A stretch of 64,000 bases of DNA, from contig CAVOVB010000002.1 in NCBI GenBank assembly GCA_963699755.1, positions 838,956-902,955 on the forward strand, read 5' to 3'. This document shows positions 42,001-64,000 of this stretch, one piece after another (within the stretch, counting starts at the first letter, position 1; every line of letters starts with the position of its first letter). A program made the position numbers. The DNA comes from an uncultured delta proteobacterium (GTDB lineage: Bacteria; Myxococcota_A; Polyangia; Polyangiales; Houyiibacteriaceae).

Positions 42001-45000
42001 CACCAGCTGGCGGCCCGCTTGCCTTTGCGCTGTGTGTGGAATCCGACGACCGCCCCGCACTGCTAGGACGAATGGCGTGGGATGTTCCCCCGACATCGGG
42101 AGGGCTGGTCGACGAAGCGCACTCCAACGAAGCTTCGAACCAGCCGAGGCCGTAGACGGCCAGGATCACTGCGAACGCCATCAGACGAACGAGCAACCAG
42201 TCTCTACGCGCTAGCTTTTGTTGCCTCCAATTGTTTCGATCCGCGGCGACAAAACGAACGGCGTCCAACTGCCTTTGCGTTGCATCGCGCATGCCAAGTG
42301 AAAAGACATCAAGACGCGCGACGCGGCGATCTGCATCCGTTGCCTGAACGCAGCGTGGTGCAAGCCCTGCATGGGTGGACGCGAGGCCTTTGCACTCTCC
42401 GCCGAGGGAGAGGAGTGCCGCGTGACATTGGCTTTCACTCGGATACCCGCGATGGGGACAGCAAAGTCCGGAGTATAGGGATGTGGTGTCACACGGTGGA
42501 TGCGACTCAGCCGCGTGCTTTTCGCGCGCGTTGGTCCGCATGACGAGCATGACGACCATCCTGCGGGACTCGAGAATAAGTACGTATAGACCGTCGTGCG
42601 GCCTTGCGAGACTCTCGTGGATCCGAAAGACCAGTGGTGCCCTGTTGCGTCGCTCCTTTCGAAAGGGTTCTAAGAGGAGGCCAAGACGAAGAAACTAGTA
42701 TCGATGAAATGCCGAGGGAAGTTGCGCAGATTCGTTGGAGCTCCTCGCCGCCATGGTGCGGGCGGGCGCTCATTAATTGAAGAGCGTTCGTTCGCGGCGG
42801 TGGACTTGGATGATCGGGTTGCGGCCGAGGAGCCAGGTGGGGTCGTTGCCTGGGGGGAGGATTTGGAGGCGGCCGCCGTGCTCGCCTTCGAGGTGGCAAA
42901 AGGCGCAGGGGCTGGTGAGGTTGTCGGCGTCGTCGGTGCCGCCGTTGGCGCGGTACTGCACGTGGTGGAGGGTGACGTTGCGTTGGTGGCAGACGGGGTT
43001 GGTGCAGCGGTAGCGATCGCGGCGGTAGATCTGCTCCCATTTGTCCGAGGTGCCTAACTGGGGGACCCATGTTTGCCAGAAGGTCGTGCAGAGGAACTGG
43101 ATGAAGCTTTCGTCGGGGAAGTGCTTGCGGTGGAGGCGTTCGAGTTGGCGGTAGTGGAGGAGGAGATCGCCGGGGACGCGGATTCGCAACGTGATCTTGG
43201 CGGATGGACCTACGGATATCTGGACAGGTTCTTTCGCGGCCTCGTCTTCGGGGGTTACGGATATCTGGACAGTGGGATCGGGCGCGGGCGCGCGGGCCTC
43301 TTCTCTGCGGGCGGGTTCATGGGGTTCATGGCATCCGTCGCGGTCGGGTTCGGACAGCGGGTCGCGGATGACCCGGCGCAAGAGCTCGCCGCTGAGGATG
43401 GCGCGTTCGGCGGCTTCGACTTGTTGGAGCTGGGCTTCGCTTGGGGGTGAGCCGTCGGTCTCGCCCAAGAAGCGGGTGGCCATTTCTACGGCTTGAACTT
43501 CTTCGCGGAGGTGTTTGAAGGTGCGGCGGGTGGCGCGGGTGAGCCAGGCGCGTTCGGTTTCGGGGGTGGCGACGCGGGCGATGAGCTGGGCGGCTTCGAA
43601 GCCGATGCGGCCTTTTTGGAGGGCGTCGATGAGGTGGTCGAGGCGCTCGGTCCGGCGGGCGAGGCTGAGTTTGCTGCGGAGGGAGGCGCGCGAGATGCCG
43701 AGGCGTTCGCGCGCGTAGTGGGCTTCGCTGGCGAAGCCGAGGGCTTGCCAGCCGCGGAGGGCGAGGAAGCGTTGGGCGATGCGGCCGAAGAAGAGATCGC
43801 GACTGGCGAGCTCGGCGCTGTAGTGACGGATGCGGGTGTCGAGTGTTTCGATGCCCGTGGGGAGGTCACTCGGGTCGGGGGCCTCGCCTGGATCGGGATC
43901 GGTGGGGACCGCGGGGCGGCTTTGAAGCTCGGCTTCGGCTTGCAGGTGTTGGAGGCGTTGCATCTGCGCGCGCCACGCGGCGTGTTCGGCTTCGGCTTCT
44001 GTGGAGAAATTGTTTTCGGATGCCGGGATGAGCTCGAGCAGGGAGATGGTGGCTTCGGCGAGGAGGGATTCGAGGAAGTGGGCGCCGGTGGATTTGCCGT
44101 CCATGTGCTCGACCATCATGCGCGTGGCTTCGAGCGCCCAGGCTTCTTCGACGGGGAGCGTGAGGGAGAGCGTGCGCGTGAGGTCTTCGTCGTCATCAAG
44201 CTGCGGCTCCGGCGGTGAGGCTGGTGATTCTGTTGAGCGCGATGAGCCTGGTGAGCCCGGCGACTCTTGCGAGCTCAACGCGATGCGCATCGCCGCGACT
44301 GTCTTGTCGCGTGCAATCTGGAGGAGCGCGGCTTCGGTTTCGGGGGTGGCGTGGCGGGCGAGGAGCTCGGCCATGGACCAGCCGATGGCGCCGGCTTCGA
44401 GTGACTCTGTTAAACGAGGGAGCGATTGGAGGCGGCGTGCGAGGGTGCGGGTTTCGGCGGCCCAGCGACCGCCGCGATTGCAGCGCTCGAGTGCGTATGC
44501 GCCGAGGGTGGAGAAGCCGAGCTCGTGGATGCCTTCGCCGAGGCGGTGAAGCGCCTGGCCGATGCGCAGTCGGAGGCGGCCCGCGCCGCGGGCTAGGCGG
44601 TGGAGCTCGGCGTCGAGCTGGGTGAGATCGCCGAGCGTGCGAGGTGCTTGGGGCTGGGCGTGCTGGTTGTCTCGGGGTTGCTGGGGGCTTTGTTGAGGAG
44701 CTCTGGGGCGTGTGGACGGGGGCGAATGGCCGGGGATTGGGAGCAGGAGGGGCGTCGGGGAGTGCGAGGGGGAACTTCGCATGATTACTGATATTTATAG
44801 CCTCGATACTGAACGTTTGTAAAGTGCTTTTTGGGGTTATCGGTCGATGTGGCCGGGCGTTGCGTGGGGTTGGTCGATTTGTGGGACGCGCGCGCGGCGG
44901 GGGGCGGCGACGAGGTCAGAACTTGCCGTTGTCGTTCTTCCACTCTGACTTCGGGGCGACTGGTTCGATTGTGTCCCAGTGCTCGACGACCTTTGCGTTT

Positions 45001-63000: not shown

Positions 63001-64000
63001 GCGGGCCGATCGAGGGCATGGGTCGTGATTCAGGCATGGAAAGTGTTTCGCCTCTTTGCAGTCTCCTCAGAAGCAATCCAGCTCGCTTTCGCGCCTCGGC
63101 CGAGAAGGCAGGACTCCGCACCGTCTCGCCGAGCCAAACGAGCGGCTTATCCGGCATGAAGCCAGGTTTCTTCTATGTCATATTCGACATAGACTTGCAA
63201 CCGAAATGTCATGATTCTTCGTCATGGGAGTTCTCGGTCGCTTGCGCGCGAAGTTGCGCGATTGCGTGCGCCCGCGGCGCGCGCCGAAGGCGCGCGTTCC
63301 TTCCGTCCGCTAGCTTGGCTCACGGTGCGGTCGACGCCGGACTCCCGGATATCTGGACAACGTTGCCTTCGTCGTTGGGACTCACGGATATCTGGACAGC
63401 GGGGACGTTGTCTTCGGGGGTCACGGATATCTGGACAGTCGTATTGGGCTCGGGCGCGCCGGCCCCTCCGTTGCCGGCGCGTCCCTCGCGCTCATTGCGT
63501 GCAGTTTCGGCTTCTCGACTCCCGGATATCTGGACTGGCGTGGCTGCGTCGCTTTCGGTGGGTCGGACGCGAGGTTGGGGTTCGGTTGTCAAGGAACGCT
63601 TGGACTGGGTTGGCGCCCGGACCGAGCTCGTAGAACCGCCATCGGCTGCGGCGCATGGTTGGTTATCGGACGATGGCAGCTGGAGTTGCGTGCTTTCGTT
63701 GACTTCGCGGGGATCGAGGCCGAGGCGTTTGTCCTGCGCGTGCGTGGGGAGGCGATGTTCCGCGTACACGTGGGTGAAGACGAGTTTTTCGAGCTCGGGC
63801 TGCGCGACGGCACCTTGGTGGTGGACCGAACCGAGGGTCGTGAAATCAGCGAAGGTTTTTCTGGGCGCTTCACCCGCGATGCGCCGAACGCCGAAGGCTT
63901 CGTGGCCGTCGTCGATCGCTTCAGCATCGAGCTCTTCGGGGACTGCGAGGTGATCACGGCAAGCGCGTTCCAAGGCAGCGACAGCCGCGGAATCGAGCTC

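Follow-up and report, generated by a model that had tools for sequence, protein, structure and literature searches.

A repeat-delimited toxin-antitoxin island of uncultured Polyangiales and its possible shuffling by homologous recombination

A one-directional array of toxin-antitoxin and enzyme cassettes occupies a fixed chromosomal site in uncultured myxobacteria. We suggest that this array is a sedentary, hypervariable toxin-antitoxin/defence island of a Polyangiales genus that is shuffled by homologous recombination and is not an integron, and we assign this reading a probability of about 0.55. We infer that the cassettes recombine by homology, possibly with stimulation by an HNH nuclease. 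Because the repeats between the cassettes appear to consist of a shared start-of-gene module and scraps of a nuclease gene, ordinary recombination explains the array better than an integron-like machine. The first-pass annotation had proposed such a machine; the data agree better with the two alternatives that it named itself, i.e. homologous recombination at the repeats and a promoter/terminator module common to the cassettes.

Results

Organization and content of the array

The window, i.e. the whole stretch of 64,000 nt analysed here, forms the end of contig C2. Motif A (GGATATCTGGAC) has 19 matches at window positions 43214-63535 with at most one mismatch, all on the + strand, as compared to 0.12 matches expected in the window from shuffles; five of the 19 fall within two HNH reading frames. 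Similarly, AGTTGCGYGWTTGCG has six window matches (at most one mismatch), all on the + strand, as compared to 0.03 expected. Genome-wide, the 19 copies of motif A in C2:882169-902479 are accompanied by six one-mismatch copies elsewhere, and a whole-genome motif search found no exact copy outside the array. Thus, the modular, one-directional organization with array-specific repeats described in the first-pass annotation is borne out, and so is the clustering of motif A on one strand, while its counts of 20 copies in the array and five elsewhere change to 19 and six.

The array contains at least 14 small cassettes on the - strand. Its Pfam content, with few exceptions on the - strand, comprises HNH (two), SnoaL (two), cupin, alpha/beta hydrolase (two), GDSL, MqsA/BrnA-like HTH, GNAT/TacA, OmdA, PIN/FitA, ParE, HigB/HTH, AF2212-like, HTH and Gp49/HTH, with a DUF6933 gene on the + strand. 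As is typical of type II toxin-antitoxin systems, small genes from known toxin and antitoxin families lie side by side; HigB+HTH, ParE, PIN+FitA, GNAT+TacA and Gp49+HTH score over or near the Pfam cut-offs. The parts are as follows (window coordinates).

33855-34853, -: short-chain dehydrogenase (SDR), conserved anchor flank beyond the HNH end of the array (Pfam)
34952-35503, -: lipocalin, conserved anchor flank beyond the HNH end (Pfam)
42773-44850, -: HNH1, 669 aa, with two ParB/Noc-like HTH domains, a variable linker and an HNH domain; V-Q-I-S repeats in the linker, with motif A at 43214 and 43259; upstream, a TTTACA-17-TATAAA promoter-like region and an L' motif at 44835-44843
44916-51817, -: cargo block between the two HNH copies, with two SnoaL genes, cupin, two alpha/beta hydrolases, an unknown gene, a + strand ORF and a GDSL esterase (Pfam, motif map)
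47957-48056: BrnA gene fragment, fused upstream of a cargo-block hydrolase
51992-54037, -: HNH2, N-terminal part interrupted; linker with three motif A copies (52433, 52478, 52523) and hairpin hp2 (52550-52582)
54131-54740, -: BrnA-like antitoxin and BrnT-like toxin with an in-frame stop (Pfam)
54825-54983, +: junction with L, D, hp1 and hp2
55007-55886, -: GNAT toxin/TacA-like antitoxin cassette (Pfam)
55941-56918, -: motif A junction (55958), OmdA-domain gene (56024-56563) and PIN toxin (56448-56918) (Pfam)
56851-57192, -: FitA-like antitoxin and D/L junction (57166-57180) (Pfam); sigma-70-like promoter inside the antitoxin gene at 57131-57104 (promoter scan)
57193-58329, -: 195-aa gene of unknown function, ParE toxin (57821-58090) and 82-aa partner (Pfam)
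58335-58486, +: junction with hp1, motif A (58414) and hp2
58527-59128, -: HigA-like HTH antitoxin and HigB toxin (Pfam)
59219-59687, -: junction (L, D-like, hp1, motif A at 59349) and AF2212-like 76-aa gene (59395-59625) (Pfam)
59700-60283, -: HTH antitoxin and internally deleted Gp49-like toxin remnant (Pfam)
60284-60640, +: compound junction with L, D-like, hp1, A, A, hp2, A, 5' fragment of a Gp49-like gene and L
60683-61531, -: 87-aa gene of unknown function, junction with L, D, hp1 and A (60951-61043), BrnA and truncated BrnT (Pfam)
61574-62375, +: junction with A, A, Gp49 5' fragment, L and D2, and divergent DUF6933 gene (61814-62375, +)
62487-63157, -: HTH antitoxin and Gp49-like toxin (Pfam); the block 62452-63303 has a 96% identical counterpart in G072
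63218-63700, +: largest junction, with D, hp1, three A, hp2, A, Gp49 5' fragment, L and D2
63701-64000, +: 3' fragment of a glycosyl hydrolase 32 (GH32)-like gene, running into contig C1

Within the cargo block, the two alpha/beta hydrolases are duplicates (93% identical), and the motif map has no A, D or L motifs there. HNH2 is 76% identical to HNH1, and the hp2 part of the junction at 54825-54983 is an HNH-linker fragment (82% identical to HNH2 52533-52617). A lone motif A at 59676 is the entire junction between the AF2212-like gene and the next cassette. Decay is widespread: one BrnT has a stop and another is truncated, one Gp49 has a deletion, Gp49 is also represented by three 5' fragments, and HNH2 is broken; intact BrnT homologues and BrnT+BrnA pairs are found in the arrays of relatives (Pfam). 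Rfam gave no matches at E<=0.1 in 40000-64000. A tRNA scan of the whole window found none, and the island is therefore not anchored at a tRNA gene.

The array had been taken to end with the contig. Instead, it crosses the contig border, the last base of C2 abutting the first base of C1: the GH32-like fragment, which is 98% identical to sequences in genomes G072 and G069 and whose G072 counterpart lies within a GH32 ORF, has its match carried on by C1:1-123. C1:1-29 kb encodes RVT_1, MmeI-like methylase, SNF2, MrfA Zn-binding (DUF1998) domain, HNH_2, McrBC and AAA_5, and the array of G072 is flanked by DUF499 and AAA_15. The array thus runs on into a defence island and shows the clustering with defence genes that is typical of such islands.

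Anatomy of the repeat

The repeat has three parts, i.e. a cassette-borne 5' module, a GC hairpin and pseudogene fragments of the HNH linker. The 5' module (D'-L') reads GCAAC, 15 nt, CCGATAACC and ends 4-6 nt ahead of an ATG or GTG. The spacer is exactly 15 nt in 46/46 modules when 13-17 nt are allowed. An ATG or GTG lies 1-8 nt past the module in 33 of the 46; 16 of these start codons open ORFs of at least 50 codons and 17 open shorter ones, while 13 modules have no start codon behind them. A strict form of the module occurs 19 times in the genome, with ten copies in the array, all on the - strand, and nine outside it that look like chance matches. The spacer sequence and hp1 travel with the downstream cassette. 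For instance, the spacer of the BrnT cassette is identical or almost so across six arrays despite differing upstream neighbours, and in the GNAT/TacA cassette common to G066, G068 and G071 the 5' module is conserved and the 3' neighbours are unrelated. Cassettes are tightly delimited, from about 45 nt ahead of the start codon to no more than about 10 nt past the stop, and junctions range from a 40-nt D'-L' module alone to 480 nt, many of them without any motif A.

The module and hairpin may serve as a terminator-like insulator and a promoter for leaderless or near-leaderless mRNAs. A scan for sigma-70 promoters and terminators returned nothing at D/L or hp1, and several cassettes (HNH, FitA and probably BrnT) have a promoter of their own downstream of the module. 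We also considered an ECF-sigma reading of the module, with AAC and CGA in what we take to be its -35 and -10 regions, respectively; this reading was rejected because the module is not found before other genes in the genome and the hits outside the array are chance-like.

Motif A encodes V-Q-I-S in the HNH linker. Six junction pieces are 70-86% identical to HNH2 52416-52654, and intergenic copies of motif A, read in the V-Q-I-S frame, give the linker-like AGAPEP..VQISVTPED..VQISGSP followed by a stop. VQIS precedes the nuclease domain in 10/10 aligned HNH proteins of the genus, solitary ones included. These comparisons establish, at the level of sequence, that motif A comes from the linker coding sequence. 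The linker pieces share one endpoint just after VQIS(G/V)(S/G)P, and motif A retains ATA, a rare codon that makes up 3.7% of Ile codons. Swapping of C-terminal domains in the style of polymorphic toxins was rejected, as linker fragments reach stops about 3-10 codons after VQISGSP.

The HNH nuclease gene

As claimed earlier, an HNH gene is present in all arrays examined. It is the sole gene common to them, is co-directional with the array and lies at its far (3') end, and both copies of this genome sit in the array. The HNH domain (PF01844) scores 24.3 and 26.7 bits (gathering cut-off 21.4). Across 38 homologues, H606, H607, N621, H630 and H635 do not vary, and C593, C598, C626 and C629 vary hardly or not at all. 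Structure prediction from the single sequence was useless (pLDDT 37.5) and the alignment-based model was good (pLDDT 84.1); Foldseek found nothing for this model at E<=0.001 in the PDB. In the model, the N-terminal domains appear to resemble the Noc/ParB DNA-binding domain (6y93_A; probability 0.80, TM 0.69 on target). The protein had been called DUF222-like. This label does not hold, as there is no match to DUF222 (PF02720) at E<=10 and the protein has two ParB/Noc-like HTH domains instead; one of 29 homologues has a sub-threshold DUF222 match (20.5 bits vs 24.4).

Solitary HNH genes are found at differing loci in G037, G038, G050 and G074, with homology confined to promoter and ORF, and they carry motif A without any array. 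No empty site for them was found in this genome or in 55 genus genomes, and their flanks map to scattered places. The HNH genes of G031 and G074 have a synonymous motif A variant with ATC, while neighbouring junction copies in G031 keep ATA; thus, gene and junction motifs do not strictly covary. At 32 of 39 solitary or distant homologue loci, the flanks contain no gene-derived fragments, and the array is therefore a feature of the genus, not a property of the HNH protein family. Hairpin hp2 is present in the HNH2 linker and in junctions and absent from the HNH1 linker, which suggests gene conversion between gene and junctions.

Conservation and rearrangement in related genomes

A 483-nt junction has matches in 31 of 54 other genomes of the genus and in 3 of 33 other genomes of the family. 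Within each of five fetched arrays, all motif A copies are on one strand, and the cassettes common to other genomes are 80-98% identical at the DNA level and non-colinear, in agreement with the first-pass annotation on strand and order. The SDR/lipocalin flank adjoins 5/5 other arrays (G066, G068, G069, G071, G072), and the downstream flanks match C2:872.8-874.5 kb. The locus is sedentary and occupies one chromosomal site across species. In metagenome contigs from four runs, these cassettes are joined in different orders; the joints adjoin motif A, the D/L module or stop codons, with 1-30 letters of unrelated sequence in between.

Ends of homology blocks lie within 15 nt of the A' start in 49 of 397 cases (8.4 expected at random) and within 15 nt of the D' start in 23 of 397 (4.0 expected), a 4-6 times enrichment at motifs in HSP ends, which are a noisy proxy for recombination break points. 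Only 126/397 5' ends and 91/337 3' ends fall within 60 nt of A' or D', and about 70% of block ends are away from the repeats. A dedicated cassette-capturing recombination site, as proposed at first, is not supported by these block ends or by the composition of the repeat from 5' module, hairpin and linker fragments.

A Pfam search of 109 ORFs from three arrays and their flanks found no recombinase of the tyrosine, serine or DDE type, and Pfam gave no recombinase family in the array part of the window. IntI (TIGR02249) is over the cut-off of 265 bits in 0/88 family genomes (best 109.5 bits; best in this genome 88.7). A rough pattern test for attC core pairs (RYYYAAC...GTTRRRY, 50-150 nt apart) gave zero in 42773-64000 on either strand, and 12 ssDNA folds (six junction units on both strands) had z of -1.60 to +0.92 relative to shuffles, with only the short local hairpins hp1 and hp2 stable. 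The earlier conclusion that IntI and attC hairpins are lacking thus stands.

Discussion

In the model that we favor, the sense strand of each cassette begins, often after a GC hairpin, with GCAAC, 15 nt and CCGATAACC, followed 4-6 nt on by ATG or GTG. Many cassettes are separated by linker pseudogene pieces of a free-standing, selfish gene for a nuclease (two ParB/Noc-like HTH plus HNH), which sits at the anchored end of every array. These direct repeats of 40-230 bp would offer enough identity for RecA-type homologous recombination, by which cassettes may be looped out, inserted again, duplicated or traded, both inside one genome and from one genome to another; recombination between direct repeats would keep orientation and scramble order. 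However, homologous recombination alone leaves unexplained the shared 5' module on every cassette, the common endpoint of the linker pieces and the retention of ATA in motif A. Also, the motif enrichment of block ends is expected from a site-directed process as well, and the promoter and terminator roles are putative, with the scan blank at D/L and hp1.

We consider it possible, if rather unlikely, that the HTH-HNH protein binds motif A at a near-palindromic core (CCRGATATCYGG) and nicks or cuts there, within the linker of its own gene as well as in the linker remnants that separate cassettes, and that gene conversion or homologous repair then copies, deletes and swaps cassettes, with the host joining the ends. 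This process would resemble homing or mating-type switching. It would fit the restriction of array-wide conservation to the HNH gene and the presence of both genome copies in the array, the conserved catalytic and zinc residues in 38 homologues, the predicted Noc/ParB-like N-terminal domains (6y93_A), the retained rare codon, the block ends enriched at motif A, linker pieces that stop just past the last motif A, the gene conversion suggested by hp2, and the behaviour of promoter plus ORF as a mobile unit in G037, G038, G050 and G074. By contrast, solitary genes with motif A and no array, the ATC variant in G031 and G074, the 32/39 loci without fragments in their flanks and the many junctions without motif A argue against it. 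Taken further, a nuclease targeting motif A would make the locus a platform for capturing and shuffling cassettes, i.e. an integron analogue in which a homing-type nuclease and host repair would stand in for tyrosine recombinase and attC; we regard this as improbable.

A new site-specific capture platform without IntI and attC, with a dedicated enzyme, perhaps the HNH protein, acting at the composite repeat, is very unlikely in our view. The tight cassette limits, the rigid 15-nt D'-L' spacing, the single orientation and array specificity of the repeats, and a locus conserved as in a sedentary chromosomal integron would all suit it, but no recombinase family was found in or beside the three annotated arrays or in the window part, break points are scattered in and outside the repeat, junction composition varies over 40 to 480 nt, and motif A derives from coding sequence. 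HNH nucleases cleave DNA, and to our knowledge neither rejoining of ends nor strand exchange is known for them. Sedentary chromosomal integrons and CALINs, i.e. attC clusters that lost their integrase, share with the array one-directional, small and tightly bounded cassettes, many of them toxin-antitoxin, at a fixed site across species with fast turnover of content and order, and CALINs without IntI are common according to PMC4889954. Still, a CALIN has hardly any probability, given zero R''/R' core-site pairs in 42773-64000, 12 folds no better than shuffles and no IntI in 88 family genomes. Moreover, the repeat is at the 5' end of the cassette and moves with the downstream, not the upstream, cassette, whereas the integron site is mainly at the 3' end of the upstream cassette; many array cassettes have promoter-like sequences of their own, and the only array-wide gene is the co-directional nuclease at the far (3') end. 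We attach equally little weight to Xer-dependent cassettes similar to the dif modules of Acinetobacter plasmids: XerC/XerD sites of such modules (pdif) alternate in orientation, whereas within an array motifs A, D and L all lie on one strand, inspection by eye revealed no 11-6-11 inverted-arm site in the junctions, and no Xer gene lies near the three annotated arrays. XerC/D-like genes are present elsewhere in this genome. According to the published descriptions, the Acinetobacter modules have similar cargo, often of HigBA or BrnTA type, and are discrete, shuffled between replicons and without a dedicated recombinase inside; the array differs in being chromosomal, with repeats in one orientation and no recognised Xer-type site.

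The recombining island that we favor has likenesses to several other systems. Like free-standing homing endonuclease genes (phage seg/mob), the HNH gene is a self-contained promoter and ORF, found at differing loci of related genomes in several copies and fragments with mosaic neighbours. It differs in that no target site or empty allele could be defined for it, that its product measures about 650 aa and contains two ParB/Noc-like HTH domains, and that linker pieces are strewn between neighbouring cassettes. Mycobacterial REP13E12/DUF222-HNH proteins are likewise multi-copy; they measure about 450-650 aa, are helical in their N-terminal region and have their HNH domain at the C-terminal end, whereas the protein in the window does not match PF02720 at E<=10. 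As in defence islands and transfer hotspots, conserved genes enclose a variable block with genes for toxin-antitoxin systems, restriction, McrBC and reverse transcriptase, its content varying by species; the array differs in its orientation-fixed, array-specific and rigidly spaced repeat at nearly every cassette start. We know of no description of such an internal repeat in defence-island hotspots. Literature on DUF222/REP13E12-HNH, toxin-antitoxin cassettes/CALIN, dif modules and Myxococcota HNH arrays did not describe the arrangement.

If homologous recombination is the only process at work, the locus would be a natural example of integron-like modularity in a toxin-antitoxin/defence island without a dedicated recombinase, and a caution against taking every repeat-delimited array for a new mobile platform. 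If the HNH protein directs breaks, its specificity for a defined target of 12 bp would make it a sequence-specific nuclease, and the locus would be a second, mechanistically unrelated bacterial route to building and reshuffling cassette arrays. In either case, the GCAAC-15-CCGATAACC-ATG module offers a candidate for a promoter of leaderless genes in uncultured Polyangiales that can be put to the test.

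Organization of the array

The window spans G000:C2:838956-902955, and its final base is also the end of contig C2. Its last part is occupied by a one-directional array of toxin-antitoxin and enzyme cassettes, of which 14 or more small ones lie between 54.1 and 64.0 kb.

Genes of the array (window coordinates, strand, Pfam assignment)
42773-44782, - strand: HNH gene (HNH1)
between the two HNH genes, almost all - strand: two SnoaL, a cupin, two alpha/beta hydrolases, a GDSL esterase
51992-53614, - strand: HNH gene (HNH2)
past the second HNH gene, almost all - strand: MqsA/BrnA-like HTH, GNAT/TacA, OmdA, PIN/FitA, ParE, HigB/HTH, AF2212-like, HTH, Gp49/HTH
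+ strand: DUF6933

Nearly all cassettes are separated by junction repeats. Motif A of these repeats (GGATATCTGGAC) has 19 matches with at most one mismatch, spread over 43214-63535; every one is on the + strand, and shuffled sequence predicts 0.12. In a genome-wide scan, exact copies were confined to the array and six one-mismatch copies lay elsewhere. The first-pass annotation had counted 20 and five copies, respectively, and these figures are replaced by the recount, while the single strand is borne out. Motif D (AGTTGCGYGWTTGCG) has six matches in the window at the same tolerance, also all on the + strand. Matches to a 483-nt junction (63218-63700) occur in 31 of 54 further genomes from the genus, in 3 of 33 from the rest of the family and, within its own genome, at array positions only. 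In five fetched arrays, the motif A copies of each array share one strand, and cassettes common to several arrays have 80-98% DNA identity and a non-colinear order. Thus, motif counts, fetched arrays and DNA comparison confirm the earlier observation of one-strand repeats with shared cassettes reordered in relatives.

Several array genes are decayed, i.e. a BrnT gene with a stop codon, a truncated BrnT fused to BrnA, a deleted Gp49 and a broken HNH2. Three 5' fragments of Gp49 genes terminate at motif A, where the intact gene of the related genome G072 has a similar stretch, GAGATCGCCCGGGA. The alpha/beta-hydrolase gene is duplicated (47057-47941 and 49851-50728, 93% identity), and one alpha/beta-hydrolase ORF has, fused to its 5' end, a 100-bp piece (47957-48056) with 92% identity to the gene of the BrnA antitoxin (61158-61256).

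A rigid module precedes the cassettes

On the sense strand of the cassettes, motifs D' and L' form a module, GCAAC-15 nt-CCGATAACC, before the cassette start codon. Searching nine sense-oriented loci with up to one mismatch in CCGATAACC and spacers of 13-17 nt permitted, we found a spacing of exactly 15 nt in 46 of 46 modules. In 33 of the 46, an ATG or GTG follows 1-8 nt past the module, mostly after 4-6 nt, and 16 of these start codons open ORFs of at least 50 codons. The spacer sequence moves with the downstream cassette; for instance, the BrnT cassette has an identical or near-identical spacer in six arrays in which the upstream neighbours differ. Similarly, the GC hairpin hp1 (7-9 pairs, directly upstream of D') moves with the downstream cassette in the single traceable case, a block at 62452-63303 common to G072. 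The strict module has 19 matches in the genome, of which 10 are in the array, all on the - strand; those outside look like chance occurrences inside genes. Because the spacing is rigid and the distance to start codons fixed, we infer that the module with hp1 is an insulator hairpin and a promoter for leaderless or near-leaderless mRNAs. A sigma-70 scan gave no signal for a promoter in the module, and some cassettes have their own promoter-like sequence behind it.

Range of junction types
shortest, about 40 nt: D'-L' module alone
59676-59687: junction of a single motif A
longest, 480 nt: four motif A copies, both hairpins (hp1 and hp2) and the 5' fragment of a Gp49-like gene

Motif A and the HNH gene

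Motif A originates from the reading frame of the HNH gene. Read as its reverse complement, GTCCAGATATCC, it specifies V-Q-I-S in the linker that connects the N-terminal domains of both HNH proteins to their nuclease domain, where the sequence lies in two to three tandem 45-bp units. Six pieces of the junctions share 70-86% identity with HNH2 (52416-52654). When the intergenic copies are translated so as to give V-Q-I-S, the peptide context of the linker (AGAPEP..VQISVTPED..VQISGSP) is preserved, and a stop codon follows a few codons on, at the expected start of the nuclease domain. VQIS is at the linker position in 10 of 10 aligned HNH proteins of the genus, including those of solitary genes in genomes without other junction parts nearby; it is absent from two more distant homologues in G010, a genome of a sister genus. 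Motif A retains ATA, a codon that accounts for 3.7% of Ile codons in the long ORFs of this genome, and its core, CCRGATATCYGG, is palindromic at 10 of 12 positions. Together, these features may indicate that the DNA sequence itself is under constraint.

The HNH protein belongs to a large family, with 278 representatives at E<=1e-30; per database records, relatives are from Polyangiales and other Myxococcota MAGs. Pfam recognizes only the HNH domain; DUF222 was not found at E<=10 and gave a sub-threshold match in one of 29 homologues, and the earlier label "DUF222-like" is therefore dropped. Its catalytic residues and zinc ligands are conserved across 38 sequences. In an alignment-based structure model (pLDDT 84.1), a helical domain occurs twice and is followed by a disordered linker and the HNH domain. 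A Foldseek search with this model gave nothing at E<=0.001; the best of the weaker matches pair the C-terminus with the McrA and Gme HNH nucleases and the N-terminal repeat with the Noc/ParB DNA-binding domain (6y93_A, probability 0.80, TM 0.69 on the target). The N-terminal region is an internal duplication with halves that are 36% identical (43548-43823 and 44328-44605; HNH1 residues 73-185 and 330-440), and the model gives both halves a helix-turn-helix fold of ParB/Noc type.

The HNH gene, which encodes a predicted nuclease, is probably selfish and free-standing. Upstream of all HNH genes lie a TTGACA-like and a TATAAA-like box, 17 nt apart, the second about 11 nt from the ATG. In the solitary copies of four genomes (G037, G038, G050 and G074), which lie at different loci among unrelated housekeeping genes, similarity starts at the TTGACA-like box and breaks off close to the stop codon, at most a few nt away. 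In arrays, the gene is at the 3' (anchored) end; G066 and G068 have extra N-terminal fragments at the far end and more copies or fragments inside, and both copies of the present genome are within the array. Of the 54 other genomes of the genus, 23 contain HNH as well as junction DNA, 5 have HNH alone, 8 have the repeat alone and 18 have neither, giving 28 with HNH and 31 with junction DNA; this overlap is no independent test because the DNA query holds linker-like sequence and the genomes are related. Gene-derived fragments are absent from the flanks of 32 of 39 solitary or distant homologue loci and, therefore, the array is special to the locus of this genus. The large genome G010 has 16 HNH-protein matches (39-51% identity) scattered across many contigs, which adjoin helicase-nuclease and phage-tail-like genes and lack motif A.

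The array is not an integron

The first-pass annotation read the array as integron-like, working without IntI and without attC hairpins. Both absences held: none of the 88 family genomes had a match above the cut-off of the integron integrase model TIGR02249 (265 bits; highest score 109.5 bits), and 12 single-strand DNA folds (six junction units, both strands) gave no attC-like structure (z -1.60 to +0.92), only hp1 and hp2 being locally stable. In a rough test, no RYYYAAC...GTTRRRY pairs (at least 6 of 7 complementary, 50-150 nt apart) were found in 42773-64000. By Pfam, none of 109 ORFs in or flanking the arrays of G066, G068 and G072 encodes a tyrosine, serine or DDE recombinase, and Rfam had no match in the array region. 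The CALIN definition and attC structure were taken from sections of PMC4889954. With neither integrase, attC-like fold, core pair nor recombinase in these searches, we reject the integron reading.

Cassette order and its possible causes

Parts of 54001-64000 are present, near-identical, in 20 public metagenome runs from 13 studies of sediment, salt-marsh, soil and wetland, at 16-50% of the sampled words per run; one run holds half or more. Thus, single cassettes are environmentally widespread. In contigs from four runs, the same cassettes are joined in other orders, with 1-30 unrelated letters between the joined sides; these joints are from contigs of other populations, not reads, and so show variety rather than events.

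Metagenome contig joints (window positions)
beside motif A: 59688, 59695, 60429, 60512, 61652
at hp1 or the D/L module: 60344, 60614, 63252, 63682-63701
near stop codons: 59392, 60672, 62494

The simplest account of the shuffling is homologous recombination between boundary repeats. The substrate would be direct repeats of 40-230 bp, made of the hp1-D'-L' module and linker remnants, at nearly every cassette boundary; recombination between them would loop out, re-insert and exchange cassettes with orientation kept. Alternatively, breaks made by the HNH nuclease may drive the shuffling. In favour of this, all linker remnants share one end point, the rare Ile codon is retained in motif A, the HNH protein has predicted ParB/Noc-like domains, there are signs of gene conversion between HNH gene and junctions, and homology block ends are enriched at motif A. 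Among eight arrays, 49 of 397 5' block ends lie within 15 nt of the A' start (random mean 8.4) and 23 within 15 nt of the D' start (4.0), but only 126 of 397 (5') and 91 of 337 (3') are within 60 nt of either motif, and HSP ends are a noisy measure of break points because indels split blocks. Against a role of the nuclease, there are solitary HNH genes with motif A but without arrays, and covariation of the gene and junction motifs is imperfect in G031. There is also a small chance that the locus is a true site-specific cassette platform, the new capture system of the first-pass annotation; its modular, one-strand array stands, but neither an enzyme nor a fixed crossover point was found. We consider it unlikely, at roughly one chance in eight, that the locus is a nuclease-driven cassette platform. 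A literature search at the level of abstracts returned no description of such an array.

The array as part of a defence island

The downstream flanks of five of five other arrays match C2:872.8-874.5 kb, which holds the genes listed below; upstream flanks are not common to the arrays.

Conserved flank
window 33855-35503: SDR and lipocalin genes

At the other end, window 63701-64000 finds counterparts of 98% identity in G069 (1740-1441) and G072 (18183-17884), and C1:1-84 and C1:1-76 extend these matches without a gap (join region, C1:1-123). Therefore, the end of C2 joins the start of C1, and the array continues on C1. Directly behind it, C1:1-29 kb (L034 and L035) encodes a pentapeptide protein, a reverse transcriptase (RVT_1, 688 aa), an MmeI-like methylase (1334 aa), an SNF2 helicase, a helicase with MrfA/DUF1998 Zn domain (DISARM-like set), HNH_2, McrBC and a 1766-aa helicase with an MTES_1575 nuclease domain; further small cassettes follow in C1:29-34 kb. 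A second direct-repeat family of about 131 bp, which contains a D'-L'-like module, lies in C1:23282-34000 (L035; copies near 23385, 29125, 30025, 31199 and 31886) among small HTH, DUF4160 and HI1420-antidote genes; it recurs next to the G064 and G071 arrays and immediately upstream of G074's solitary HNH gene. In the complete genome G037, the same SDR-anchored locus (C1:1765-1767 kb, L027) is a minimal version of the array: apart from the SDR gene, it has just a C-terminal fragment of HNH and a single BrnT/BrnA pair. Thus, the array, its continuation and the defence genes on C1 make up an island of about 55 kb that is anchored on one side at the conserved flank, and we file the locus as a hypervariable toxin-antitoxin/defence island.
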